A stretch of DNA of 64,000 nucleotides from an uncultured Phascolarctobacterium sp. (GTDB lineage: Bacteria; Bacillota; Negativicutes; Acidaminococcales; Acidaminococcaceae): contig NZ_CALDXR010000019.1 in the NCBI RefSeq assembly GCF_937920985.1, positions 31,268-95,267 on the forward strand, written 5' to 3'. This document shows, piece after piece, positions 8,480 to 51,893 of the stretch (positions are counted from its first letter, which is position 1; each line of letters begins with the position of its first letter). Position numbers and translations under genes: made by a program. The notes beneath the pieces were generated by a model. The model ran no database searches. It worked only from the letters and a program-made list of their open reading frames with translations, and was not told where the DNA came from.

Positions 8480-9850
8480 TTAAGCTTCTTCGCCGCCAAT
8501 AACTTCCAATAATTCTGCTGTCTTCGCAGCAAGCAGCTCCTTATCACCCTTAGTTTCTACGTTCAGGCGCATTACAGGCTCCGTATTGGATACACGCACA
8601 TTAAAGCGCCAGTTATCATAAGCAACGCTCAGGCCGTCCAGGTGATCCTGCTCGCCGTCAGCATATTTTTTGCCCAGCTCTGCCAGTACTGCTGCGGAAT
8701 CAGCAACCTTGCGGTTTATTTCACCGCTGCAGGGATACATAGCAACGCGCTCGCCTACCAGCTCGCTGAGCTTTTTACCGCTGCGGCACATCAGCTCAGT
8801 TACCAGTAGCCAGGGAATCATGCCGCTGTCGCAGCAGGAGAAATCGCGGAAATAATGATGCGCGCTCATTTCGCCACCGTACAGAACGTCATTATTACGC
8901 ATGCATTCCTTCATAAAGGCATGCCCGCTCTTGCAGCGCACAGGCACACCGCCGTCACGCTGTAAAATAGCTTCGGTGTTCCAGGTCAGGCGCGGGTCGA
9001 ACATAATCTTTGCGCCCGGCTCCTTGTGCAGGAAAACCTCCGCCAGCAGGCCGACAATGTAATAGCCTTCGATAAAATCTGCCTTCTCGTCAAAGAGGAA
9101 GCAGCGGTCGAAATCACCGTCCCAGGCAATACCCAAATCAGCACCGCTCTCACGCACAACCTTCGCTGTAGCCTCACGGTTGGGCAGCAGCAGCGGGTTG
9201 GGTACACCATTGGGGAAGGTGCCGTCCGGCGTTTCGTTCAGCGTAATAAATTCAAACGGCAAATGCTTTGCCAGCTCCTTTAAAATCGGACCAGCTCCGC
9301 CGTTGCCGGGGTTAGCAACAATCTTCATCGGTTTGAGCACACTCGTATCAACGTAGGTCAGCAAATGCTCAATATAAGCAGGCATAATATCCAGCTGCTC
9401 CAAAGCACCCATAGTCTTGCCTGCTACCACCTGATGCGCAAACTCTTTAGTTGTCGCAACCATCTCGCCAATTTCCTTCAGACCGGTATCACTGGAAACA
9501 GGACGTGCATCACGACGCACCAGCTTCATGCCATTGTATTCCTTAGGATTATGGCTGGCAGTAACCATAATACCGCCATCTGCTTTCAGATGCGCGGTAG
9601 CAAAATAAATCATTTCCGTACCACACTGACCGATATCAATAACCCTGGTGCCGCCATGGCGCAGACCTTCTGTCAGCGCATCAACCAATGCTCTGCCGCT
9701 CAGGCGGATATCATGGCCGACAACAACAGTTTCTGCAGCAAACATTGCTGAAAAAATGCGTCCCATACGGTAAGCCATTTCCTCATTAACCTCTGTAGGG
9801 TAAACGCCGCGTACATCGTAGGCCTTAAAAGCCTTATTCGTAACTTGCAT
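8480..9850 (-). CDS. phosphomannomutase/phosphoglucomutase (alpha-D-phosphohexomutase family)
   Basis: 456 aa. Active-site TASHNPKEYNGMKL and a metal loop GIAWDGDFDR. Confidence 0.85.
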   Translation of the reverse strand: MQVTNKAFKAYDVRGVYPTEVNEEMAYRMGRIFSAMFAAETVVVGHDIRLSGRALVDALTEGLRHGGTRVIDIGQCGTEMIYFATAHLKADGGIMVTASHNPKEYNGMKLVRRDARPVSSDTGLKEIGEMVATTKEFAHQVVAGKTMGALEQLDIMPAYIEHLLTYVDTSVLKPMKIVANPGNGGAGPILKELAKHLPFEFITLNETPDGTFPNGVPNPLLLPNREATAKVVRESGADLGIAWDGDFDRCFLFDEKADFIEGYYIVGLLAEVFLHKEPGAKIMFDPRLTWNTEAILQRDGGVPVRCKSGHAFMKECMRNNDVLYGGEMSAHHYFRDFSCCDSGMIPWLLVTELMCRSGKKLSELVGERVAMYPCSGEINRKVADSAAVLAELGKKYADGEQDHLDGLSVAYDNWRFNVRVSNTEPVMRLNVETKGDKELLAAKTAELLEVIGGEEA

Positions 9851-10747: not shown

Positions 10748-12060
10748 GAGCGCCTCCTGCGGAACTGACGCATACGGATATCCATATCCGCACGCAGCAG
10801 AGCAGGCTCCTTGCCTTTAGACCATTTATCTAGTTTTTTACGCAGCTCCAGCGCCTCCGGCGTATCCCAGGCATCCTCGCTCACCAGCTGCAGATAACGC
10901 TTTAAATCCTGCACAATCGGCAGAGCTTGCGGACGCGGGCTCACATTCTGGATATCCTGCAGCAGCTGATAGCTGTTGGCTCCTAAAGAAAAATCTACGT
11001 GACGCACTCCTTCAAACTGCTTGCCCCAGGCCAGCACGCGGATGCTCTCGGCCGGCACGCTGCTAAGCACCTGCGGACTATGCGTAGTAACAACAAACTG
11101 CACCATCGGGAATGTTTTCTGCAAATCAAGCAGCACCGTCTGCTGCCACAGAGGGTGCAGGTGCATTTCTACCTCATCAATCAATACAAGGCCCTGGGTC
11201 TTGGTTACCGCATCCTCACGCAGCTGCGGATTCAGACGCGCCATGCGATAGGCCAAATCAGCCACCATACTGATAATGCTGCGGAAGCCGTCGCTCAATT
11301 CATCTACCACCATCTCACCCATATCGGGATGGCTGACAACAAAGCATTTCAAGCGATAATTATAATACAAATCACGCAGACCGGTGCTTTCCAGACACAC
11401 ATCTACAGCGTTCTGAATAGCATTCTTCAGCATCACATTGCGCTTCACCTCTGCGCTATACTGCTGTTCTGTCTGCGCACATTTGGTAACGTACTCAAAC
11501 CATTTGCCAAAGGTGCTGTAGGAAGAAGACGGCTCCAGGCATTCCTCGTAGCCTACATTGCGTTCTGTCAGCGACTTGTGAAAATTCGTCATCAGCTTGC
11601 TGTCTACCCAAATGCGCTGAGTACCGTAATAGGCCAGCACCGGCAGCAGCCTGTTGCCGTTCTCCTTAGCATCGTGCGCCAATGCGCAACCACGCTCGCA
11701 CAGCTCATTAGCATCATCCTCGGGCACATTGCCCTCCAGCAGGCGGCGGGTACAGGTAAGCTTTTTGCCGTAAACCTCACCCTCCAGCTTAATTTCTACC
11801 GGATAATGACACTCCATACCTTCAATATGACGCATATCCTTTTTATAAACAGGCACACGCCGCACATCCTGGGGGGTAATGTGCCGACCACTGGCATCAA
11901 AGCTGCGCAGGTAAGGCTCCAGAGCAATTGCCAGCGCATCAAAAATCGCCGTCTTGCCCTTGCCGTTTTCACCTACAATAACTGTCAGCCTAGGTTCAAA
12001 ATCAATATCAAGCTCATCGTAACAACGGAAATTCTTCAGCCTTAATCTTTCTATCTGCAT
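10744..12060 (-). CDS. ptuA: ABC/SMC-like AAA ATPase of a Septu-like defence pair (PtuA-like)
   Basis: 438 aa. MQIERLRLKNFRCYDELDIDF...VGENGKGKT (Walker A), LVLIDEVEMHLHP (Walker B/D-loop), VVTTHSP (H-loop). Translationally coupled to the HNH gene. Confidence 0.65.
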   Translation of the reverse strand: MQIERLRLKNFRCYDELDIDFEPRLTVIVGENGKGKTAIFDALAIALEPYLRSFDASGRHITPQDVRRVPVYKKDMRHIEGMECHYPVEIKLEGEVYGKKLTCTRRLLEGNVPEDDANELCERGCALAHDAKENGNRLLPVLAYYGTQRIWVDSKLMTNFHKSLTERNVGYEECLEPSSSYSTFGKWFEYVTKCAQTEQQYSAEVKRNVMLKNAIQNAVDVCLESTGLRDLYYNYRLKCFVVSHPDMGEMVVDELSDGFRSIISMVADLAYRMARLNPQLREDAVTKTQGLVLIDEVEMHLHPLWQQTVLLDLQKTFPMVQFVVTTHSPQVLSSVPAESIRVLAWGKQFEGVRHVDFSLGANSYQLLQDIQNVSPRPQALPIVQDLKRYLQLVSEDAWDTPEALELRKKLDKWSKGKEPALLRADMDIRMRQFRRRRS

Positions 12061-39182: not shown

Positions 39183-40760
39183 TTAAAATGGATTTTGCCA
39201 AGGCATTACTGTATTCCAGTCATCGCTTTCTTCATATGGTCCTAATTCCCTTCCTTCATGCCTTATCTGTATTCTTTGACCATATTCATTGGTTGCATTC
39301 TCATAGATTGATGTATTTCTAGGAATATACTTATAACCGTTAATCCAGATTCCCAAAACATTTCCAGACTCTTCCGCCTGCATTGTTATACGAATATTTG
39401 CCGGTAATTCCAATTGCCTTGCTTTAGCACGATTCTCCGAAGAAACAATCCTATCGTAAACAACTTCATAAGAAATTTTTCCATCAAGATTTTTGGCGGT
39501 AGGAACTTTTTTACGTGCAAAATTCAGCTTATAATATTCATGCATAATATCATAAGGCAGAAATGTTTTCGTTAAAGCTATAGCTTCAGCTAAAGATACC
39601 TGTTTTTCATCTCGCAACTTAGCTAAATCCAGGAAAATGACAAAGACATAATTACTTTTATCTGCACGACTCATGCTTTCTATAGACAGCAAACATTTTT
39701 TGCCATTTATACCATATTTTTCATTTGTACTCGTCTTATTAAAATAAACAGCTTCCTCAATGAACTTCTTGCCAAAGGTCAGCATATCATCATAATTGTC
39801 TAAAAGCCGCGGATGTTCAGAAGCCGACAATAACTCCCAGCTTTTTTCTAAATACGGTGCTTCCTTAGGTGATTGATGCCAATTTGCAGGTTTCCATTCC
39901 GTAAATTTATAGTTATTGTCCAATCGTCCGCCTAACTGATTCAGCAGTATCGCAATGCGTATATTCTTTACTCGGTTGTTTGTATCTGCTTCAAATCTTA
40001 TCGTTATACTTCCCGGATAGCCATGTACCATATACTTAGATTGATATTTTTCTTTTAAATGATATCTGATATCATAATACCTTTTATTATTTGCAGCACT
40101 CAAATAATCTGCACACTTGGTTTCAGCAAGCTCATAATACTCGTCCATGATTTCCCAAGGGATAAATGTTTCCGCTATATCTACTGCTTCATCAATCTTA
40201 ATATTATTTGTTTCCTGCGCATTAGAAAGATAAATTTGAATATCCCTTACTTTAGCATCGTCATCTTGAGAATCTGTAAATATATTCTCAGGCACTGTTT
40301 CAAAACAAAGAACAGTCTTATCATCGTATTTTGAAGAATCTAGCTTAACAATCCGTCCCTGTCCCTCGTAAAATCTTTTCACATCAGCTCTGGAAGAAAA
40401 TAGTTTAGGATGATTGGCTTTAGTAATTAATTCCTTTACTTCATTTTTTGGAGGCACAACAGATGACGAAACATCTACCTTGTTTGCCAAAAACATACAA
40501 CTGCTAAATAACATAATAAAGCCAACAAAAACAAACAGCAGATTTCTTAAGCACCCTCCTTTGGCCTGAGGAGGCTCTTCTTCATAATCATTTGTATAAT
40601 ACATCGAATCATCGAAATTAATATTATAGTTATAGATAATATAGTTTCCATCATTTGCAAGAACATATTTTGTTCCGCAATGTCTGCAGGTGTATATATT
40701 GTCCTGATAACTAAAATCACTGCTGCCGCAGTTTTCGCAAACCAGTTTTTTTAATTCCAT
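39183..40760 (-). CDS. hypothetical zinc-ribbon / single-pass membrane protein with an internally duplicated exo-domain (525 aa)
   Basis: N-terminal CENCG...CRHCG zinc ribbon, TM LLFVFVGFIMLFSSCMFLA, and two related ~200-aa modules (..AVDIAETFIPWEIMDEYYEL.. and ..AIALTKTFLPYDIMHEYYKL..). Markedly lower G+C than its neighbours. Confidence 0.6.
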   Translation of the reverse strand: MELKKLVCENCGSSDFSYQDNIYTCRHCGTKYVLANDGNYIIYNYNINFDDSMYYTNDYEEEPPQAKGGCLRNLLFVFVGFIMLFSSCMFLANKVDVSSSVVPPKNEVKELITKANHPKLFSSRADVKRFYEGQGRIVKLDSSKYDDKTVLCFETVPENIFTDSQDDDAKVRDIQIYLSNAQETNNIKIDEAVDIAETFIPWEIMDEYYELAETKCADYLSAANNKRYYDIRYHLKEKYQSKYMVHGYPGSITIRFEADTNNRVKNIRIAILLNQLGGRLDNNYKFTEWKPANWHQSPKEAPYLEKSWELLSASEHPRLLDNYDDMLTFGKKFIEEAVYFNKTSTNEKYGINGKKCLLSIESMSRADKSNYVFVIFLDLAKLRDEKQVSLAEAIALTKTFLPYDIMHEYYKLNFARKKVPTAKNLDGKISYEVVYDRIVSSENRAKARQLELPANIRITMQAEESGNVLGIWINGYKYIPRNTSIYENATNEYGQRIQIRHEGRELGPYEESDDWNTVMPWQNPF

Positions 40761-40990: not shown

Positions 40991-42109
40991 TTAGTTGCCG
41001 CGTACATACTCGCGCGGCACACGCGGGCTCACGTCGCAGATAATTTCATAGCAGATAGTATCTGCCCATTCCGCAACCAGCTCCATTGGCAGCTCACGAC
41101 CGCCAAACACGATGACCTCACTGCCCAGCTTGACGTCCGGAATATCCGTCACGTCCAGCATCGTCTGGTCCATGCATACGCGTCCGATAATCGGCGCCTT
41201 TTTGCCGTTGACCAGCATATACCCGCGGTTAGACAAGCGGCGGCTCACGCCGTCAGCATAACCGATAGGCACAGTAGCAATAACACTAGGTCTCGTCAAT
41301 GTATAGGTTCTGCCATAGCCGATGGTTTCACCGGGTGGCAGTGTTTTCACAAAAGCAACCTGCGTCTTCACAGTCATAACAGGCTCAAAATCCTTGTAGC
41401 AGTCAATCATATGCGCCGGGTGCAGGCCATACAGGGTGATTCCCTGACGCACCATATCCAGCTGATATTCCTGCAGCTCCGTCAGCGCAGCACTGTTGGC
41501 GATATGACGGATAGGGATATGCACTCCCTCCGCTTCAATCAGGCGCAGCGCCTCCTGAAAGCGTTCAAATTGATAGGCAGCATACTGCTTATCATCGGCG
41601 TCAGCAGTCGCAAAGTGACTGAATACGCCCTCGATATAGATACCGGGCAAGGACGCTGCCAGCTTGGCAAACCTGCCGGCATCACGCACATGCACACCGA
41701 TACGATGCATACCTGTATCAATCTTAATATGTATTTTAGCCTTCGTATGCAGCTTCAAAGCCGCCGCATTCAAAGCATATAAGCGTTCTTCATCAAATAC
41801 TGCATGGCTGATATCATAGCGCACACAGATTTCCGCAACCTCCGGCAGCATTGAGCCAAGCACCAGAATCGGTTTTTCAATACCGGCCTCGCGCAGCTTC
41901 ACGCCCTCCTGCAGGAGAGCTACCGCAAAAAAGTCTGCACCATTACGCGCTGCCTCCTGCGCTACGCGCACAGCGCCATGACCATAGGCATCTGCCTTGA
42001 CGACAGCACATAATTTGGTTGTCGGCTTCAGATTGGCCTTAGCCATCTGCACGTTATGTGCAATTGCATCTAAATTTATTTCTGCCCACGCACCACGTTG
42101 AATATGCAC
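40991..42109 (-). CDS. alr: alanine racemase
   Basis: 372 aa with a GTG start behind AGGAGGA. VVKADAYGHG PLP-lysine motif. Confidence 0.9.
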   Translation of the reverse strand: MHIQRGAWAEINLDAIAHNVQMAKANLKPTTKLCAVVKADAYGHGAVRVAQEAARNGADFFAVALLQEGVKLREAGIEKPILVLGSMLPEVAEICVRYDISHAVFDEERLYALNAAALKLHTKAKIHIKIDTGMHRIGVHVRDAGRFAKLAASLPGIYIEGVFSHFATADADDKQYAAYQFERFQEALRLIEAEGVHIPIRHIANSAALTELQEYQLDMVRQGITLYGLHPAHMIDCYKDFEPVMTVKTQVAFVKTLPPGETIGYGRTYTLTRPSVIATVPIGYADGVSRRLSNRGYMLVNGKKAPIIGRVCMDQTMLDVTDIPDVKLGSEVIVFGGRELPMELVAEWADTICYEIICDVSPRVPREYVRGN

Positions 42110-42265: not shown

Positions 42266-42409
42266 TTATTTTTTTATCGAGGTACAGTTTTTAGCATGCG
42301 GACAGCCGGAACAGCCGTTACAGCCGCCACGATACTTTTTGCCAAAATAACTGCGCACCGCCAAAATCACCAGTACCACTAACAAACCACCAATAATATA
42401 GGTTGCCAT
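42266..42409 (-). CDS. FeoB-associated Cys-rich small membrane protein
   Basis: 47 aa from ATG 42409. One TM (YIIGGLLVVLVILAV) followed by GGCNGCSGCPHAKNC. No feoB adjacent. Confidence 0.55.
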   Translation of the reverse strand: MATYIIGGLLVVLVILAVRSYFGKKYRGGCNGCSGCPHAKNCTSIKK

Positions 42410-42446
42410 CAGTCTGCTCACTTTACAATTATCATTATTCACTATA

Positions 42447-42692
42447 TTAGCCAAGAATTCTAGCTATAGTGTAAACTAAAATTGCCTTTTTTACAAATGA
42501 ATTCTTTGTGAAAGAGTGACACAGACAGTAAGAATTTTTGCCTGCCTTTATTTTGCTGTAATGGTTGGTCAGGTCTTTGTCCAGATCAATGTCGATGTTA
42601 CCACTGGCAATGATATTCGCATCAGCAGTCTCTTTATCGATCTGCGCAGTCAAAATCTGCCTGTCAAACTTGCGCACTGCATCATAATAATA
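42447..42692 (-). pseudogene. start-less hemagglutinin-repeat-like fragment at the left border of the AT-rich island
   Basis: Open frame ...RQILTAQIDKETADANIIASGNIDIDLDKDL... bounded upstream by TAG, with no ATG. Intermediate G+C. Confidence 0.35.
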
Positions 42693-42705
42693 CTAAGAAA
42701 CAACG

Positions 42706-43110
42706 CTACAATAATATATCATTTGTTATACCAAAAGCATATAATAATAGTAAAAGTAAAGTTGCAATATATATGTATATAATTTTTTCTTTAATTACAT
42801 TATATACTTTATAATCTTCTTCCTCAGCTTTTCCCATAAATATTTTTATCATCGCTCTTCTTTTTATTCCATATAGCATTAATGATAACCCAAGCCCCCA
42901 CAAAGGAAAAAAATACCTTATAAAGTCGCTAATATCAAAAATATCTAAAATACATCCTATCATAAAGATAACTATCATAAAAGCTCCAGCATTAAGCGAA
43001 ATAAAATACTTTTTATCACTTATTGATTTGAAATCCAAATTTTTACAGTAGACATTTATAATTCCTATCGTAAAAAAAGCTACCATTGTTGCTAAAATAT
43101 AACATCCCAT
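42706..43110 (-). CDS. small polytopic membrane protein (134 aa), immunity-like
   Basis: About 4 hydrophobic helices. Its ATG overlaps the stop (TAATG) of a short upstream frame ending ...GYDILATTDKEMGLK. Confidence 0.5.
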   Translation of the reverse strand: MGCYILATMVAFFTIGIINVYCKNLDFKSISDKKYFISLNAGAFMIVIFMIGCILDIFDISDFIRYFFPLWGLGLSLMLYGIKRRAMIKIFMGKAEEEDYKVYNVIKEKIIYIYIATLLLLLLYAFGITNDILL

Positions 43111-43183
43111 TATTTTAACCCCATCTCTTTATCAGTAGTTGCTAAAATATCGTAACCATCAAATATGACGCGGATATAAAATC

Positions 43184-43537
43184 TCAATTCAATAATATAA
43201 AGAATAAATCCACTTTATATTTTAGCTTAATCACTGAAACAATCCACGGAAAAACAAATACACCCAAAATAGTAAATAATATAAATCTTATAGTATTGCT
43301 AAATATAAATCTACGTTTCATTAATTCTAATTGATCTTTGCTTATTATGTATTTTTGTTCTAACATCTTTTTAAATTCCACATGGATATTCATCCAAACG
43401 TAAGCTAACATTAACAATATTAATTTTATTGGGAAATACTATTTCCATAATGGAACACTAACTGGAACATCGCACATTACAACATATACGAAGTATAAGA
43501 CTAAATAATAAAATAATAAAATTTTTATTTTCCGCAT
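43184..43537 (-). pseudogene. homologue of the 123-aa membrane protein (45729-46100), interrupted by an in-frame TAG (43439-43441)
   Basis: ATG 43537 MRKIKILLFYYLVLYFVYVVMCDVPVSVPLWK-TAG-YFPIKLILLMLAYVW... The track lists only the 3' part (43184-43417). Confidence 0.6.
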
Positions 43538-43539
43538 GA

Positions 43540-43937
43540 TCAATTGTCCTTTTCAACTAAGTCATATAAATTCTTTATATCCATGCCTAATACTAAAGGA
43601 TCTAATAATACTTCTGCTTTACTACGTTCTATTGAATCAGTTGCAACTTTATTCTCGCAATTTAAATTTATCTTTATTTTACCACTCTCTATTTTTCAGT
43701 GCTGAAATAACAACATACTTAAAATCAACTAACTCTTTAGCTTTTTCCTTCTCTTCTGTTGTAATATCTTGAAATAATACCGCCTTTAAGGTCAGTGTTT
43801 TCACCTACATTAATCTTAAAGCCATCTTTGCCTGCGTAAATACCGCTTTGGTCTGTAACGCTTTCATATTTACTATCAACATTATCCTTGCTTACATTGC
43901 CACTAATTCCAGCAAAATCAGCTTTGATATTCCTCAA
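43540..43937 (-). pseudogene. CdiA/FhaB-like FHA-2/pretoxin stub plus frameshifted C-terminal (toxin-tail) remnant
   Basis: ...ADFAGISGNVSKDNVDSKYESVTDQSGIYAGKDGFKINVGENTDLKGGII..., then two further frames (..EEKEKAKELVDFKYVVISALKNRE.., ..GKIKINLNCENKVATDSIERSKAEVLLDPLVLGMDIKNLYDLVEKDN*). No ATG. Confidence 0.6.
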
Positions 43938-44442
43938 GATTATCCATTATTTTTTTAATTATACCATCAAATTGAGAATCAAAGTCTTCCCTCTTTATTT
44001 TAAATTCAAAACCACTTACAGTATTACCGAATGATTTAGTTATTCTGTCACGTTCAGGCATTGCAATTTCATATTCTTTCAATTCTTCTCTATAAATGAC
44101 CTCAATAAGATAGTGCATATTAAAAAAATGATTCCATATTTTATATTTTGTTTTTTTAAATGGATCAACAAATTCTTCTTTATCATATTTGTAATTTTCT
44201 AAGCTAAGCATTAGGCATCTAAATACTCTTTCTTTCAATGATTTAATATCAACATTTTCAATAATACTACCCATGCTCCTACTAAATCCAATACTTGTAA
44301 CATGCAATGTCAAAATAGATATTTCACCTGTGTTTTTTTCTATATATATGTTTAATAATCCTTTCATTTTGCCACCTACTCTACAATAGCGATATTTGTA
44401 TTATTTTCGGCAATCAGGTCTGCTTTTTCTGCTTCACTAGCT
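43770..44442 (-). repeat. direct repeat copy 1 (stub / 149-codon ORF / stub cassette)
   Basis: Blocks 43831-44020 and 44311-44442 are near-identical to 46746-46935 and 47226-47357 at a constant offset of 2915 nt. The core is diverged but has the same length. Confidence 0.8.
43918..44367 (-). CDS. 149-aa cytoplasmic hypothetical protein, copy 1 (immunity-like cassette ORF)
   Basis: Intact ORF with no TM and GTAGGTGG upstream. Paralogue at 46833-47282. Confidence 0.6.
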   Translation of the reverse strand: MKGLLNIYIEKNTGEISILTLHVTSIGFSRSMGSIIENVDIKSLKERVFRCLMLSLENYKYDKEEFVDPFKKTKYKIWNHFFNMHYLIEVIYREELKEYEIAMPERDRITKSFGNTVSGFEFKIKREDFDSQFDGIIKKIMDNLEEYQS

Positions 44443-44450
44443 TTATAACC
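44376..44450 (-). pseudogene. 24-codon hemagglutinin-repeat stub (GYKASEAEKADLIAENNTNIAIVE*)
   Basis: Same sequence and frame as the 3' end of the 47291-47461 stub. Begins directly after the stop of the 147-aa ORF. Confidence 0.5.
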
Positions 44451-44882
44451 TTACCTACTTAAAGGTAAACCATATAAAAAAGATACTATCTGATCACGAC
44501 AATCAACAAACAATAAAGAATATACATCTCTACTATCATCAAAAATCAATAAAACCTTACCTTTTTTACATATTGTTTTCTTTGCATTTGACTCTATTAT
44601 TATCCAACCATTTTTATTGATACTTTCCTTTAACTGTTCAGATATATCTATATTTTTGCAACTCAAAACACAGTTTAAAGTACAATCTCCTAAAATATAT
44701 CTTTGCGTTTCGAGCTTAACTACCTTTGCTTCAGTCGGCACACTCAAATGAATCAATTGCAAATACATAGCTCTTTCTTTGTTTATTACATCATTGCTGT
44801 ATTTTAACAAAGCATTTGAATATACCAATACTGCAGCACAAAACAAACTTAAAACTGCTGTTACAATAAACTGTTTCTTCAT
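44451..44882 (-). CDS. signal-anchored small protein (143 aa from ATG 44882)
   Basis: MKKQFIVTAVLSLFCAAVLVYSN N-terminal hydrophobic segment. GGGGGA RBS before the second ATG (the track starts at 44894). Confidence 0.5.
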   Translation of the reverse strand: MKKQFIVTAVLSLFCAAVLVYSNALLKYSNDVINKERAMYLQLIHLSVPTEAKVVKLETQRYILGDCTLNCVLSCKNIDISEQLKESINKNGWIIIESNAKKTICKKGKVLLIFDDSRDVYSLLFVDCRDQIVSFLYGLPLSR

Positions 44883-44896
44883 ATTATCCCCCATGT

Positions 44897-45313
44897 TTAC
44901 AGAAGCGTTACCATTATATTGTACTTATGAATATCTTTTATGTATTGTATTCTATACTCTAATCTGTTATCTATATATACTCTTGAGGTATCTCCATTTC
45001 GCTTGCTCAATTTATATCCGTCGTGCTTATTAAAAATTGCTTCCGAAAGCTCCTCAAATCCCATATTAGAATTAAAGCTCATATTAATCACTGCCACTCT
45101 ACCACTACTCTTACCAGGATTAAAAGAAATGTAGAAATTACTTATATCACTTTTAGGTAAGTCTAACCTTAAAACCTTTTCAAGAGCAATATCCATATGT
45201 GAAATAGCGTAATCCTCCTCTACCAAATTTCTAGTATTTGGGGAAAAAATGCATAAACAAAATACAATTACCTCTGTTAGCAAAATATATACTATCGACT
45301 TATGTATTACCAT
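44897..45313 (-). CDS. signal-anchored small protein (138 aa)
   Basis: N-terminal IVYILLTEVIVFCLCIF hydrophobic segment and AAGGAG RBS. No family recognised. Confidence 0.5.
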   Translation of the reverse strand: MVIHKSIVYILLTEVIVFCLCIFSPNTRNLVEEDYAISHMDIALEKVLRLDLPKSDISNFYISFNPGKSSGRVAVINMSFNSNMGFEELSEAIFNKHDGYKLSKRNGDTSRVYIDNRLEYRIQYIKDIHKYNIMVTLL

Positions 45314-45728
45314 AACCGAACTCCTTTACATCACCATGTAATCGAATAATCAACAATTGCACCTACTGAAAATCCAACCCCAATCATTAATATTTTATAA
45401 TTATCAGGTGTAATACCATAATAAACACCGTCAAATGCTTCTAACTTTCCGCCAACAGAAACTCCCCTCAATATGTAAAGCCTTTGCTACTGACTAGCGA
45501 CCTTGTTTCGAAACTATACTACGCTTACATTCAAACCACAGGAAGTTGTACGTTCACCAATCACAAGCTCTCACCTGCGATAGAACTATTTCTGAAATTT
45601 TTTTAAGAATGATGGAGTAAGCAAAAATGCCAACAACAGCTTTTGACAAAGACAAAGACAAATTATAGCCGCTTTTGCAGTCTTCATATCAACATTAAGG
45701 ATACCCTATTGGGAGCGGAATAGTACTT

Positions 45729-46100
45729 TTAGTTTGTAACCAAAAAACTTAAGTTTACTCCATATACATCACGTATTAAGAGTAATATATATGGTGCTAT
45801 AAATACAAAAAAAACTGCAATCAACATAAAAATCAAGGTGTTTTGATAAACAAACTTTTTTCCTAAATGTTCAAACTTGATTTTATCTTTATCTCTATAA
45901 TACATCATTTTTTTAGCATCATTAAAAATTTTAGTCCATAAAAATGCCATAAATATAAGCAATAACTTTATTGGAAAATATGCTTTCCACGCCTCTTCAT
46001 TTATACCACACTCTTTATTCGGTAAGATTATATATATAAGATAGAATATAGAATAGAATATCATGTAGTTCTTTATGTAGCGACTAGTTATCTGTTTCAT
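45729..46100 (-). CDS. 123-aa polytopic membrane protein, immunity-like (intact family member)
   Basis: Three hydrophobic helices and the W-K-A-YFPI motif shared with 43184-43537 and 46365-46478. Its start lies inside the 3' end of the upstream toxin-tail frame. Confidence 0.55.
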   Translation of the reverse strand: MKQITSRYIKNYMIFYSIFYLIYIILPNKECGINEEAWKAYFPIKLLLIFMAFLWTKIFNDAKKMMYYRDKDKIKFEHLGKKFVYQNTLIFMLIAVFFVFIAPYILLLIRDVYGVNLSFLVTN

Positions 46101-46374
46101 GATTTTGTTTTAACTCCTCTATGGTTTTTACATCCATTAAAATTCCTATATCATTTAACATCTCTTTTACTCTTATTCTTTCAAAATCATCTGTAATTAC
46201 TTTATCCCAATTTATATTATCAACTCTCCCTTTCTTAATTGCAATAGCGAAGGAACTAGCATCGCCATATATACTAATTACTTTAGCTGTTATATCTAAT
46301 TTATTATAAAAATTATTTCCTAAATTATCTTTAATAACATTATATTTTTGGCTATCGTTATCAATCAGATCATG
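46084..46374 (-). pseudogene. 96-codon open frame without a start codon: toxin C-terminal-domain-like remnant
   Basis: HDLIDNDSQKYNVIKDNLGNNFYNKLDITAKVISIYGDASSFAIAIKKGRVDNINWDKVITDDFERIRVKEMLNDIGILMDVKTIEELKQNHETDN*. Its tail resembles the copy-1 remnant tail. Not in the ORF track. Confidence 0.45.
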
Positions 46375-46478
46375 TTAGCTATAGGAAAATATCGCTGCCA
46401 CAATGGAATATTAATCATATCATTGTAATAAAACCCAAGAATCATTATAAACAGAAAATATATTATTACTCTTCTCAT
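46365..46478 (-). pseudogene. truncated 37-codon member of the small membrane protein family
   Basis: MRRVIIYFLFIMILGFYYNDMINIPLWQRYFPIANMI*. ATGA overlap with the preceding remnant frame. Confidence 0.45.
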
Positions 46479-46852
46479 TTGTTTAAGATACCACCTGCTG
46501 TTTTTATATAAAATAATAGACCTGCATAATCTAATGTATCTTTCAATTTTTCTTGTTCAAAGTTGATTGTTACTTATATTAGTAGTATTGCCAAAGACAT
46601 CTTCTCTCTTTAAAGTAACAGTATGATTTTCAAGAGATATTTCTTTGATAAGGCATTAATGTACCTATACTATTTTCTTCATATTGTGCTGGAAATTACC
46701 TCGCCTTCTAAATCAGTATTTTTTCCAATGCCAAAGCCACCTTTACCTGCGTAAATACCGCTTTGGTCTGTAACGCTTTCATATTTGCTATCAACATTAT
46801 CCTTGCTAACATTGCCACTAATTCCAACAAATTTAGCTTTGATATTCCTCAA
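46475..46852 (-). pseudogene. CdiA/FhaB-like stub plus multiply frameshifted C-terminal remnant (copy 2)
   Basis: ...KFVGISGNVSKDNVDSKYESVTDQSGIYAGKGGFGIGKNTDLEGEVISSTI*, then three more short frames ending ...DYAGLLFYIKTAGGILNK*. Confidence 0.55.
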
Positions 46853-47357
46853 GATTATCCATTATTTTTTTAATTATACTATCAAATTGAGAATCAAAGT
46901 CTTCCCTCTTTATTTTAAATTCAAAACCACTTACTGCACTTCCGAAAGACTTGGTAGCTTTTTTCCTTTGAAGCATTTTTATATAATATTCTTGGTTTTC
47001 TTCTATATAAGTCACCTCAACAATATAGTGCATATTAAAAAAACGATTCCATGTTTTGTATTTTGTGAGTTTAAATGGATCAAGATTTTCTTTATCTTCA
47101 CTTTTATATTCAGCTAAACTGAATTTTATGCATTTAATTACTGTCTCCTTTAAAGATTCATTGCTGATATTATCGATAATTTTTCCTATGCTTCTGCTAA
47201 ACCCAATAGTAGTAACGTGATATATCAAAATAGATATTTCACCTGTGTTTTTTTCTATATATATGTTTAATAATCCTTTCATTTTGCCACCTACTCTACA
47301 ATAGCGATATTTGTATTATTTTCGGCAGCAAGGTCGGCTTTTCCTGCTTCACTGGCT
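46685..47357 (-). repeat. direct repeat copy 2
   Basis: See copy 1. Same offset on both flanks, so there is no indel within the ORF. Confidence 0.8.
46833..47282 (-). CDS. 149-aa cytoplasmic hypothetical protein, copy 2
   Basis: The first 19 aa are identical to copy 1. The last 40 aa are near-identical (3 differences). About 40 of the central ~90 residues differ. Confidence 0.6.
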   Translation of the reverse strand: MKGLLNIYIEKNTGEISILIYHVTTIGFSRSIGKIIDNISNESLKETVIKCIKFSLAEYKSEDKENLDPFKLTKYKTWNRFFNMHYIVEVTYIEENQEYYIKMLQRKKATKSFGSAVSGFEFKIKREDFDSQFDSIIKKIMDNLEEYQS

Positions 47358-47461
47358 ACGTTGCCACCTTTTATATTAATATCGTTACCACTTGCAATGC
47401 TGGTAGCAAAAGTATTTTCCCTATTGCTAAAATCACTGCGGTATACTACAATAAGTCTAAA
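47291..47461 (-). pseudogene. 56-codon start-less hemagglutinin (Fil_haemagg-like) repeat stub at the right border of the island
   Basis: FRLIVVYRSDFSNRENTFATSIASGNDINIKGGNVASEAGKADLAAENNTNIAIVE*, bounded upstream by TAA, with no start codon. Confidence 0.55.
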
Positions 47462-47485: not shown

Positions 47486-48124
47486 ATGCAATTACCGGAA
47501 AAAAAATACATTGCCTCCTTTGATATTGACGCACAAAACACCTTCACCCCGGTCTGCCCCGACGAGCTGCCGGTTTCCGAAGGCGACACCATCGCTCCCG
47601 AGCTGAACGCCCAGGCGCAATTCGCCAGCCTGCGCCTCGCTTCCCGCGACGCGCACAGCCGTTGCGCGCTCTGGATCAGCGACGCTGAGCACGCTCCGCT
47701 CACTCCCATCAGCGGCTATCCCGATCTTGATATCCGTTGGCCGGCACACGCTATTATCGGCACCAAAGGCTTTGACTTCATCGACGGCCTCGATGAAGCG
47801 GCTTATGATTATCAGGTGTTCAAGGGCATTGAAGCAGATAAGCATCCCTACGGCGCCTGCTACCATGACCTGAAGGACACTCTTTCCACCGGTGCCATCG
47901 AATATCTGCGCTGCCATGGTATTACCACCGTTATCTGCGGCGGTCTGGCAACCGATTATTGTGTAAAAAACACTGTACTGCAGCTGAAGGCTGCTGGCTT
48001 CGATGTTATCCTGAACAAGGCTGCCTGCCGCGGCATTGCTCCCGAAACCATCGCAAGCGCTATGCAGGAAATGGCTGCTGCCGAAGTAAAATTCGTAGAA
48101 TGCGCCAAGGAATTAGCTGAATAA
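47486..48124 (+). CDS. pncA: nicotinamidase/pyrazinamidase (isochorismatase family)
   Basis: 212 aa. FDIDAQNTF, WPAHAI.GT.G, GLATDYCV catalytic Cys motif. Confidence 0.75.
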   Translation: MQLPEKKYIASFDIDAQNTFTPVCPDELPVSEGDTIAPELNAQAQFASLRLASRDAHSRCALWISDAEHAPLTPISGYPDLDIRWPAHAIIGTKGFDFIDGLDEAAYDYQVFKGIEADKHPYGACYHDLKDTLSTGAIEYLRCHGITTVICGGLATDYCVKNTVLQLKAAGFDVILNKAACRGIAPETIASAMQEMAAAEVKFVECAKELAE

Positions 48125-50560: not shown

Positions 50561-50594
50561 AAAAGCATAAACTTATGCTTTGAGGAGGATGAAA

Positions 50595-51893
50595 ATGCTT
50601 AAGCGGAAGTTTTTGGATGCACTTGTACAGTGGAAAGAAAATAAACAGCAAGAATGTTTATTAGTCAAAGGTGCACGCCAAATAGGTAAAACTTATATCA
50701 TAGATTATTTTGGACGGAAGCATTATCGTAGTTATATTTATATAAATTTTATCGAGATGCCAAAGTTCAAAGAAATATTTTTGGGTGATTTGTCAGCAGA
50801 TGAGATATATAAAAGAATTTCTTTGCTGCTTCCTGAAAGCCGCTTTCTTGAGCATGAAACATTGATTTTTTTAGATGAAATCCAAGCATGTCCTGAGGCA
50901 AGAACGGCATTGAAATTTTTAGCGCTGGATAATCGTTATGATGTTATTGCTTCTGGTTCACTTTTAGGTATCAGCTATAAAGAGGTCGACTCTATTCCTG
51001 TTGGCTATGAGAAGCAGATTACAATGTATGCTCTGGACTTTGAGGAATATTTATGGGCCTTGGGTTACACTGATGAGAAAATAGCGATTTTGCAAGATTA
51101 TTTTTTGCTGAAAGAAGCAGTACCGCCTGCTGTACATGAGCAGATGTTAAAGCTGTTGCGTGAGTACATGGCGGTAGGCGGTATGCCTGCTGTAGTTAAT
51201 AAGTTTGTCGAAACGCAGCATTTTGGCCTTGTACAGCAAGAACAGGAGAAAATACTTGCCAGTTATCAGGAGGACGTTTCTAAATATGCCAGCAATACAG
51301 AGAAGCCTAAGGTAAAAAATTGCTATTTTTCTATTCCTAAGCAGTTGGCTAAAGAAAATAAAAAATTTCAGTTCTCTGTTGTAGAGAAAAAGGGAACGGC
51401 TCGTAAATTCGAAAACAGCATTGAGTGGCTACGGGATGCAAATCTTGTTTATTTGTGTTATAACGTTAGTACGCCTGCTTTTCCTTTAGCTGCTTATGAA
51501 AAAGAGGATATGTATAAGTTGTATTTAGCAGATATTGGCCTGCTCATATCTATGTATGGGTATGATATGAAAAAGGCTATTATTGATGATACGCTTACCG
51601 GAGCGGCTAAGGGAGGTATTTATGAAAATCTCATTGCTGATATGTTGGTAAAGGGAGGACATAAGCTAAACTATTTCCGATCTCAAAATGGTGAAACAGA
51701 AATAGAGTTTCTTATTACTAAGGAGGCGCAGATTATTCCTGTGGAAGTGAAGGCTAATAGGGGGTCTACCGTATCGTTGAATAGAATCTTAGAGCAGACA
51801 CAGATTCCTTATGGCTATAAGCTTATTTCCGGGAATGTTGGCGTTAATGACAAAAAAATAGTATTGCCATTGTATATGGCTATGTTTTTATAA
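50595..51893 (+). CDS. AAA ATPase with DUF4143 domain (AAA_14/DUF4143 family)
   Basis: 432 aa from ATG 50595 behind GAGGAGGA. VKGARQIGKT Walker A and LIFLDEIQ Walker B. Confidence 0.75.
   Translation: MLKRKFLDALVQWKENKQQECLLVKGARQIGKTYIIDYFGRKHYRSYIYINFIEMPKFKEIFLGDLSADEIYKRISLLLPESRFLEHETLIFLDEIQACPEARTALKFLALDNRYDVIASGSLLGISYKEVDSIPVGYEKQITMYALDFEEYLWALGYTDEKIAILQDYFLLKEAVPPAVHEQMLKLLREYMAVGGMPAVVNKFVETQHFGLVQQEQEKILASYQEDVSKYASNTEKPKVKNCYFSIPKQLAKENKKFQFSVVEKKGTARKFENSIEWLRDANLVYLCYNVSTPAFPLAAYEKEDMYKLYLADIGLLISMYGYDMKKAIIDDTLTGAAKGGIYENLIADMLVKGGHKLNYFRSQNGETEIEFLITKEAQIIPVEVKANRGSTVSLNRILEQTQIPYGYKLISGNVGVNDKKIVLPLYMAMFL

Follow-up and report, generated by a model that had tools for sequence, protein, structure and literature searches.

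Probable orphan cdiI alleles between recombining arms in a Phascolarctobacterium toxin/immunity island

Described orphan immunity systems and the Phascolarctobacterium island

[quoted passage not shown] Members of the EC869-o11/TA271 - YPIII family of CdiI proteins (PDB 4G6U, 4ZQU, 4ZQV and 2GKP) neutralise a Zn-dependent DNase CdiA-CT by beta-augmentation, as summarised from Morse et al. (2012, 2015) in PMC9086364. Orphan cdiA-CT/cdiI modules have been described downstream of cdiBAI loci (Poole et al., 2011; PMC3150448), an EC869-like cdiI, t0728, occurs in the cdi-less genome of S. Typhi (PMC7400221), and gut Bacteroidales carry the orphan immunity arrays known as rAID (PMC12247911). Orphan immunity genes are already established as a defence against neighbours for CDI, Rhs and T6SS systems.

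We analysed a stretch of 64,000 nucleotides from an uncultured Phascolarctobacterium sp. (hereafter the window), in which a 149-codon ORF (ORF149) is present twice. The pair very probably represents two alleles of an orphan cdiI directed against an EC869-like Zn-dependent DNase toxin (PF21111), with the toxin deleted and the alleles lying between recombining arms. Such a pair of orphan cdiI genes, within an island of orphan toxin/immunity modules that stands alone, is a fresh instance of an arrangement that is already known.

ORF149 shares with the EC869-family CdiI proteins its predicted fold and a size of ~150-175 aa; its homologues likewise lie directly behind a PF21111-bearing cdiA end (loci L008, L029, L031, L036 and L038), and the C-terminal part of the linked toxin diverges together with the immunity protein. 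Identity to that family in structural alignments, however, is only 11-12%, with no sequence or profile match. As in the orphan modules of Poole et al. (2011), the island is an array of cdiA fragments that lack start signals, and behind each of them comes a small immunity ORF with a separate ribosome-binding site (RBS); the remnant behind each ORF149 copy (stub B below) and further remnants match CdiA pre-toxin regions, with intact versions in L003 and L008, and a role as an immunity repertoire is proposed in both cases. Unlike those arrays, the one in the window is isolated, with housekeeping genes on either side and neither cdiB nor cdiA within 64 kb, whereas in the relatives L035 and L038 the array lies downstream of a CDI cluster, as in Poole et al. 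(2011). Two further differences are that the first module of the island lacks its toxin through a clean internal deletion and that the arms reach into both ends of the immunity gene, so that immunity cores, and not just toxin/immunity pairs, are exchanged. Like t0728 and rAID, the island is a case of a gut bacterium retaining immunity genes whose cognate toxin is missing, with strain-variable content and presumed protection from neighbours. t0728 is nevertheless recognisable by sequence (cd13445), unlike ORF149, and rAID arrays are related to T6SS and come with a tyrosine recombinase or mobile element, whereas the island has no recombinase and owes its variation to homologous recombination between repeats; its resemblance to rAID is a functional analogy only.

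Repeat anatomy and toxin deletion

Pairwise comparison defines an ungapped repeat at an offset of 2915 (window positions ~43812-44442 versus 46727-47357), with all of its genes on the minus strand. The 3' arm (43812-44019) is matched at 197/208 positions (94.7%), the 291-nt core (44020-44310) at 205/291 (70.4%) and the 5' arm (44311-44442) at 126/132 (95.5%), and outside the repeat identity drops to ~22-25%, the random level. These segment identities (arms versus core, Fisher p = 2e-17) reproduce the original prediction of a 149-codon ORF duplicated at a constant 2915-nt offset with near-identical ends and a diverged core of equal length, and divergence is not uniform along the repeat (arms ~95%, core 70%). 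The two proteins are identical at 107/149 positions and, as first counted by eye, differ nowhere in residues 1-19 and at 3 positions in the last 40, leaving 39 differences between. Third codon positions differ at 39/97 sites in the core and 0/52 in the arms.

Between copy 1 and copy 2 the core has a dS of 0.92 with a dN/dS of 0.32, values that point to old alleles rather than rapid change after duplication; the diversifying selection on the core that had been suggested is therefore not borne out. A recent tandem duplication followed by strong positive selection limited to the immunity-protein core would account for the concentration of amino-acid differences in residues 20-116, and diversifying selection is known to act on immunity proteins, with a T6SS analogue described in PMC12247911. 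We nevertheless regard such a history as very improbable, given that synonymous sites in the core are saturated at a low dN/dS, that in other strains each core type is found in an allele of its own heading the island and that a chimera of the two exists. On this comparison, two old alleles sit between arms that appear recently homogenised.

The immunity genes, both with 149 intact codons, occupy 43918..44367 (copy 1, allele type I) and 46833..47282 (copy 2, allele type II), each with the RBS AGGTGG 4 nt 5' of the ATG. Both are preceded by a reading frame ending in ...AENNTNIAIVE, whose stop codon lies 8 nt 5' of the ATG. This upstream stub A spans 47291..47405 in copy 2, where a cdiA filamentous-hemagglutinin (FHA) repeat fragment (...SIASGNDINIKGGNVASEAGKADLAAENNTNIA) meets the final codons (IVE) of an EC869-like toxin at a fusion point at ~47299-47304, with the stop codon at 47291-47293; in copy 1 (44376..44442, ending ...KASEAEKADLIAENNTNIAIVE, stop codon at 44376-44378) less of this fragment is present, the deletion junction is identical and the repeat homology begins at 44442. 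A reading frame encoding ISGNVSKDNVDSKYESVTDQSGIYAG... overlaps the 3' end of both immunity ORFs. In copy 2 the next orphan cdiA-CT module begins with this stub B (46679..46852; ISGNVSKDNVDSKYESVTDQSGIYAGKGGFGIGKNTDLEGEVIS...), a truncated 5' end whose frame shares 20 nt with the 3' end of the immunity gene; in copy 1 (43737..43937) an orphan cdiA-CT module likewise begins with stub B (...SGIYAGKDGFKINVGENTDLKGGIIS), beyond which lies an internal deletion, with a toxin remnant at 43655-43765. The 5' arm of the repeat accordingly comprises the deletion scar and the first 57 nt of the ORF, and the 3' arm the last ~100 nt of the ORF and the beginning of the next module.

By tblastn, stub A of copy 2 (47303-47401) corresponds to CdiA residues 313-345 of L011 and 1207-1239 of L035 (94% identity), and stub B of copy 2 (46685-46825) to residues 796-843 of L011 and 1668-1715 of L035 as well as to residues 1-58 of an intact 599-aa orphan in L008; stub B of copy 1 (43770-43910) maps to the same CdiA region. 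The recognition that the same two hemagglutinin-like stubs flank both copies thus holds, and the stubs are genuinely cdiA-derived. That both are true cdiA sequence and lie tight against the ORF could be taken to mean that a mobile, inserted or nested small gene had replaced ~100 residues of hemagglutinin repeat, with the stubs as halves of one gene, but we find this scarcely credible. In contiguous CdiA proteins the stubs are 429-447 residues apart, which does not support the proposed ~100-residue replacement, and no locus was found in which ...AENNTNIA and ISGNVSKDN... stand ~100 residues apart in a full-length cdiA. Moreover, the toxin domain ahead of the ORF is complete in L008, L029 and L038 and ends in its stop codon, the RBS spacing being unchanged, stub A holds the last toxin codons, and no recombinase, integrase or transposase ORF occurs within 42450-47450. 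The stubs were rejected as parts of one interrupted gene: stub A is a deletion scar and stub B the start of a separate orphan cdiA-CT module.

Alignment to the DNA of L038 locates the deletion, since the 5' side of stub A matches nt 8831-8937 and the 3' side nt 11792-11840, the match jumping to nt ~11808-11840, which hold the toxin end, RBS and ATG. By this alignment stub A is a mid-cdiA fragment fused to the last toxin codons by loss of ~2.9 kb (~958 codons), the whole toxin included; what is left of the toxin in the window at this site is its last three codons and stop, with identical spacing. The 'LIAENN' variant of stub A in copy 1 matches the L038 orphan. The same scar in both window copies points to descent from one deletion event. 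Other strains carry a second, independent junction that joins cdiA codon ~265 straight to the toxin stop codon, and these two deletions, both sparing the RBS and the gene, provide a natural case of toxin loss with immunity kept.

The inter-repeat cargo (44451..46478, minus strand) holds remnants of more orphan toxin/immunity modules: a truncated 94-aa-type immunity gene (46371-46478), an orphan toxin 3' end (46087-46374; 98% identity by tblastn to residues 350-445 of the 445-aa orphan toxin of the intact L003/L008 modules), a 123-aa membrane immunity candidate (45729-46100), a toxin tail ending ...YSITW (45331-45471), a 138-aa ORF (44897-45313) and a 147-aa ORF (44451-44894). The cargo gene order is intact in L003 and L008. 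The distal island end (42534..43537, minus strand) consists of a disrupted 117-aa-type membrane immunity gene (43187-43537; 93% identity to a 117-aa ORF of L004 by tblastn), a 134-aa membrane ORF from the ORF list (42706-43110) and an out-of-order cdiA fragment (42534-42689; 98% over 52 aa to residues 606-657 of L035 CdiA by tblastn).

Fold and toxin linkage of the immunity gene

Single-sequence and profile searches of Pfam, NCBIfam and the PDB with ORF149 returned no match, and its membership in the CdiI family therefore rests on fold and gene context. The AlphaFold2 model of copy 1 (pLDDT 86, pTM 0.84) was compared as a predicted model with solved structures, and in this Foldseek search of the PDB the only matches with E <= 1e-3 were 2gkp, 4zqv, 4g6u_B and 4zqu_B, all EC869-family CdiI structures (probability 1.0, TM 0.55-0.64), the next match being 100-fold worse. 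Structure prediction, which had been recommended as a check, thus leads to a toxin-system family.

Gene context agrees with the fold. An ORF149 homologue begins 8-13 nt past the end of a toxin that carries the EC869-like nuclease domain PF21111 in L008 (toxin of 979 aa), L029 (614 aa), L038 (1272 aa) and L031, the last from Selenomonas noxia, and L036 has the same arrangement behind a frameshifted PF21111 toxin. The allele behind the intact L038 toxin is of type I and shares 88% identity with copy 1, and upstream of the L035 and L038 loci there are full-length cdiA genes that include a TPS domain. Comparison of the Phascolarctobacterium toxins gives 87-92% identity over the N-terminal 101 aa and 48-58% over the C-terminal 62 aa, in step with immunity identities of 47-61%. 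Fold and upstream toxin together uphold the original prediction that the ORF is an immunity or specificity determinant of a toxin system, and we infer that ORF149 would be expressed and would neutralise its toxin. To judge from their divergence alone, the two alleles probably cover two putative toxin specificities.

The ORF149 family has 24 representatives among 1.84 billion proteins and is confined to the Negativicutes (Phascolarctobacterium and Selenomonas). These findings give a functional assignment to a small family of proteins in gut Negativicutes that was without annotation and has no Pfam or NCBIfam model, and document CDI toxin/immunity loci in Phascolarctobacterium and Selenomonas; a literature search found no paper on CDI loci in Phascolarctobacterium.

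Alleles and recombination among strains

In every strain the island occupies one chromosomal position, flanked by an isochorismatase gene on one side and by the FeoB-associated and alanine racemase genes on the other, and the search for further copies recovered 1-3 of ORF149 per island among other Phascolarctobacterium strains. Tblastn with cdiB and full-length CdiA found no toxin, cdiB or long cdiA in the 64-kb window and only four short cdiA fragments, so that the threat to be guarded against is not observed there, a point against the immunity reading. Both ORF149 copies could be functionless, decaying relics of a dead CDI locus, with arms whose likeness stems from a recent duplication of the segment or from similarity at the assembly level: the toxin fragments nearby are mostly truncated or frameshifted, and the window has no cdiB or cdiA. 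We consider this improbable, because both window ORFs are intact with a good RBS and because 31 of the 32 near-full-length copies (23 sources, comprising 22 loci and the window, with the 33-aa fragments of L003 and L006 left out) are intact, the exception being L001_11523 with stop codons near its start, while the toxins are deleted, frameshifted or truncated. The low dN/dS, the two independent deletions that left RBS and immunity gene untouched, and the persistence of ORF149 as the sole remaining island gene in L002, L005, L014, L016 and L018 likewise favour retained immunity genes over relics.

The type II allele (copy 2) heads the island in L001-L006, and both core types occur as separate head-position alleles in other strains. 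L020_7911 (protein P0006) is chimeric, its left core 100% type II and its right core 96% type I, and type III alleles combine cores 50-59% identical to the window copies with a 3' arm at 99%. L004 corresponds to the window except that the 2915-nt inter-repeat segment is missing and one copy is left, and such an island looks like the product of crossing-over between the repeats. These chimeric, type III and single-copy forms lend substance to the earlier proposal that the flanks act as recombination arms, and record the reshuffling of immunity alleles by recombination inside a human-gut species.

Conservation of the arms could instead reflect mainly their function as DNA or RNA, as a promoter, in translational coupling, as the start of the downstream frame or as a regulatory RNA. 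In keeping with this, the 3' arm is 88% identical in L008 despite cores at 51-66%, and the stub B frame begins inside the end of the ORF. We think this unlikely as the main cause, although constraint on the nucleotide sequence may contribute to the likeness of the arms, as there are clear recombinants and structural variants with breakpoints in or at the arms, a promoter and terminator scan found no enrichment (promoter sites no more numerous than in shuffled sequence), and in the more distant L011 allele the 3' arm is only 61% identical.

In the history that we propose, the ancestral unit would have been a long orphan cdiA fragment ending in a toxin, with the immunity gene 8 nt on and then the next orphan cdiA-CT module. 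A deletion between imperfect short repeats would have removed the ~2.9 kb and with it the toxin, sparing stub A (the mid-cdiA piece, IVE and stop), the RBS and the intact immunity gene. The cores would then be separately evolved alleles, with arms kept near-identical by homologous recombination or gene conversion, and these arms would let strains change copy number, replace alleles and form chimeras. Cells retaining the immunity proteins, with no deliverable toxin, could thereby survive CDI-positive relatives with varied EC869-like toxins. More speculatively, and in our estimation rather doubtful, the arms might be more than passive homology and constitute a maintained cassette-exchange device that shuffles immunity cores in a gut Negativicute with no toxin in the window, yields chimeras like P0006 and stacked alleles, and tracks the diversifying EC869-like toxins of the community. 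Such a device would represent a CDI immunity-repertoire system operating by homologous recombination without a dedicated recombinase, and it would imply a defined module boundary in cdiA, because the orphan 5' ends cluster within ~50 nt.

Fold and gene context of the ORF149 pair

The 149-codon ORF present twice on the minus strand of the window (ORF149; copy 1, 43918-44367; copy 2, 46833-47282) is very probably a pair of orphan immunity alleles of contact-dependent inhibition (CDI) systems. Pfam, NCBIfam and PADLOC returned nothing significant for both copies and the neighbouring small ORFs, two family profiles run against PDB sequences gave only noise (dynein light chain, E 0.02; botulinum HA, E 0.6), and an exhaustive HMM search of 1.84 billion representatives with the family profile recovered only 24 relatives, none of which linked ORF149 to proteobacterial CdiI. 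A 30-sequence alignment gave an AlphaFold2 model (pLDDT 86, pTM 0.84) with only four significant Foldseek matches in the PDB: 2gkp (NMB0488), 4zqv (CdiI of Yersinia kristensenii), 4g6u_B (CdiI of an E. coli CdiA-CT/CdiI complex) and 4zqu_B (CdiI of a Y. pseudotuberculosis complex), with probability 1.0 and TM 0.55-0.64, the fifth match being 100-fold weaker. These structures are immunity proteins of the EC869-o11/TA271 family, the toxins of which are Zn-dependent DNases inactivated by beta-augmentation (PMC9086364). The predicted structure was decisive for the identity of ORF149, which gene context confirms; a reading as an anti-phage defence gene was rejected.

In three related loci (L008, L009 and L010), the gene after a ShlB-type cdiB encodes a 979-aa protein with hemagglutinin repeats, and an ORF149 homologue starts 8 nt past its stop. 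The C-terminus of that protein is the EC869-like nuclease toxin domain CDI_toxin_EC869_like (PF21111; 53.9 bits against a Pfam cut-off of 27). Toxin likewise precedes ORF149 in L029 (a 614-aa orphan fragment with toxin), in L031 (Selenomonas noxia) and in L036, where a frameshifted toxin precedes an allele resembling copy 1. Locus L038 contains, in order, a full-length cdiA (2642 aa, with TPS domain), a 264-aa ORF, a 1272-aa orphan cdiA fragment whose PF21111 toxin is intact, and an ORF149 allele 88% identical to copy 1. The linked toxins end in ...KIT(I/V)(I/V)E*, followed by AGGTG and ATG, a layout matched in the window by IVE*, AGGTGG and ATG. The original suggestion of an immunity determinant is thus supported by both the CdiI fold and the PF21111 toxins upstream of homologues.

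Three Phascolarctobacterium toxins share 87-92% identity over the N-terminal 101 residues of the nuclease region and 48-58% over the C-terminal 62, comparable to the 47-61% among their immunity partners. At the sequence level, this co-variation is in keeping with separate specificity types of toxin and immunity protein, under which stacking two alleles would be of benefit. With the L008 toxin domain as query, a word-indexed homologue search yielded three fragments only, precluding a survey of toxin variants, and a later search for CdiA homologues gave no match longer than 1294 aa. The cdiB of L008 and L009 (L008 5656-7056) is truncated, covering Pfam ShlB positions 1-242 of 311, and is fused to a 5'-truncated cdiA, because of which the L008 locus is likewise unable to secrete its intact EC869-like toxin. 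ORF149 homologues with a source name are labelled Phascolarctobacterium succinatutens; a scan of GTDB genomes gave P. succinatutens CAG:287 and a MAG of an uncultured Phascolarctobacterium as carriers of close copies, and Selenomonas noxia and S. artemidis as carriers of relatives at 35-39% identity.

Deletion scars and orphan modules

Two cdiA-derived stubs accompany each copy, as originally described: stub A (...AENNTNIAIVE*), whose stop lies 8 nt ahead of the ATG in both copies, and stub B, a frame encoding ISGNVSKDNVDSKYESVTDQSGIYAG... that overlaps the 3' end of each ORF149. They had been taken for two halves of one gene, with about 100 residues of hemagglutinin repeat missing between them. 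Stub A corresponds to residues 313-345 of the contiguous 1388-aa L011 CdiA, 1207-1239 of the L035 CdiA (numbered over the 1943 residues contained in that locus) and 279-311 of the L038 orphan, and stub B to residues 792-851, 1668-1715 and 740-784, respectively. The stubs are therefore 429-447 residues apart in the intact protein, not about 100, and insertion of ORF149 into a hemagglutinin repeat was rejected.

Stub A is instead a deletion scar. Its DNA tracks L038 to nt ~8935 (...GAAAATAATATAAATATCGCTA) and resumes at nt ~11808 (TTGTAGAGTAGGTGG...), so that relative to L038 the junction is a 2.87-kb deletion (~958 codons) between imperfect repeats. The deletion took the remaining FHA sequence, the pre-toxin domain and the toxin except its last three codons, sparing the ribosome-binding site and the immunity gene, and the junction is identical in both window copies. 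In L007, L001 and L021, a second, independent junction joins cdiA codon ~265 straight to the toxin TAG, and the stub frame in these strains reads through into the immunity ORF. The in-frame fusion proteins P0083 and P0084, which would make ORF149 a C-terminal effector domain of a hemagglutinin, are read-through across this second junction, and that reading was rejected as well. Across the related loci, toxin-encoding DNA has been lost repeatedly, through deletion or frameshift, and the immunity gene is intact in 31 of the 32 near-full-length copies extracted, L001_11523 having stop codons near its start.

Stub B is the 5'-terminal part of the orphan cdiA-CT module that follows. This module is intact in L008 as a 599-aa ORF, and L003 has comparable intact orphan toxins (425- and 445-aa ORFs) that carry TKNNYL as the VENN-equivalent motif. 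Orphan cdiA fragments (5' ends at L008 7036, L011 10467, window 47405 and 44442) start close together, within ~50 nt of a single cdiA site (L038 nt 8831-8879, around NIKGSNVASEAGK); the L008 orphan, which follows the truncated cdiB, starts at L038 nt 8860 and the L011 orphan, which follows an ORF149 homologue, at 8859. Such clustering may reflect a recombination hotspot or a defined boundary of the modules.

Conserved arms, diverged cores and mosaic alleles

An ungapped comparison at the constant offset of 2915 nt bore out the description of a duplicated ORF with like ends and a diverged middle. The repeat spans about 43812-44442 and 46727-47357, with all genes of the region on the minus strand, and consists of a 3' arm (43812-44019; 94.7% identity between copies), a 291-nt core (44020-44310; 70.4%) and a 5' arm (44311-44442; 95.5%; arms versus core, Fisher p = 2e-17); just beyond it, identity falls to the random level of 22-25%. 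ORF149 is intact in both copies, and the two 149-codon products have 42 differences, of which none falls within the first 19 residues and three fall within the last 40. Within the ORF, 39 of 97 third codon positions differ in the core and 0 of 52 in the arms. Since core dS is 0.92 and dN/dS is 0.32, the cores are old, purified alleles; the same values and the unchanged third positions of the arms rule out recent positive selection after duplication, and the dN/dS speaks against the diversifying selection first suggested for the core.

Exchange through the flanks, the other process proposed, accords with the mosaic structure of the population. In 22 related loci the island occupies one chromosomal site with very different content and one to three gene copies, which fall into type I (resembling copy 1), type II (resembling copy 2), type III (148 aa, beginning with MLGLLD) and more distant types. 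L020_7911 (protein P0006) is cleanly chimeric, with a core that is 100% type II on the left and 96% type I on the right, and L015_6308, a type III allele at the head position, has a core 50-59% identical to the window copies and a last 102 nt at 99%. L004 equals the window less the 2915-nt inter-repeat segment, L002 and L014 have one copy only, which is joined to the distal end of the island, and in L003 and L006 a copy is truncated at window 44269/44270. The chimera, the type III arm and these structural variants are what homologous recombination or gene conversion through the arms would be expected to produce.

Setting and remaining content of the island

The island (roughly 42450-47450, ~5 kb) has ~28% G+C in a genome of ~50%, and is bounded by an isochorismatase gene (47486-48124, plus strand) on one side and by genes for a FeoB-associated peptide (42266-42454, minus) and alanine racemase (40991-42109, minus) on the other. 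The window contains no cdiB or long cdiA. The island stands alone as an array of orphan CDI immunity genes and toxin remnants; its remainder consists of further decayed toxin ends and of candidate immunity proteins that are small and of membrane or lipoprotein-like type. A promoter and terminator scan counted 31 promoter-like sites in the island, where shuffled sequence predicted 33. We infer that ORF149 is expressed, neutralises toxin and confers allele-specific protection: the two proteins, as modelled, would bind incoming EC869-like DNase domains from CDI-positive relatives and so protect the cell, and the conserved arms would permit allele gain, loss, replacement and recombination.

This kind of arrangement is already known. 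Orphan cdiA-CT/cdiI modules, expressed orphan immunity proteins and a recombination model have been described (Poole et al., 2011; PMC3150448), the cdi-less genome of S. Typhi harbours an EC869-like orphan cdiI that stands alone (PMC7400221), and the orphan immunity arrays of gut Bacteroidales (rAID; PMC12247911) are a T6SS analogue. Our literature searches found no paper describing Phascolarctobacterium CDI loci. What sets this case apart is that its immunity family escapes recognition by sequence searches, that the toxin deletions are clean, and that the ends of the immunity gene itself lie within the homology arms.

Several minor features were also noted. Small membrane proteins of 94-, 117- and 123-aa types (43187-43543 and 46365-46478, minus strand) share the motif PLWQRYFPIK and are a second family of immunity candidates, paired with orphan toxins ending ...DVKTIEELKQNHETDN or ...DIKTVGDILNK; of the three copies in the window, two are disrupted. 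A 52-aa cdiA fragment (42534-42689, minus) at the island's distal end shares 98% identity with L035 CdiA residues 606-657, in the same numbering. This region lies upstream of stub A in intact cdiA but downstream of all orphan modules here, an order that simple linear decay of one locus does not explain. Adjoining the alanine racemase gene, in a block of 35-37% G+C, a 525-aa ORF (39183-40760, minus), which has a zinc-ribbon-like motif at its N-terminus and is unassigned to any family, is present in L002, L005 and L016 but absent from L001, L003 and L004, and is therefore a separate presence/absence polymorphism. A 437-aa ORF (50580-51893, plus), flanked by two HAD-hydrolase genes in a block of low G+C, resembles an insertion that varies between strains; at the corresponding position L015 has a 432-aa AAA_14/DUF4143 gene on the opposite strand relative to its flanking genes, and the other related loci have no such gene. 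In two strains, an ISL3-family transposase (L018 5662-6963; L019 128-1429) lies directly past the isochorismatase gene, on its far side from the island, which the transposase adjoins without being part of it.
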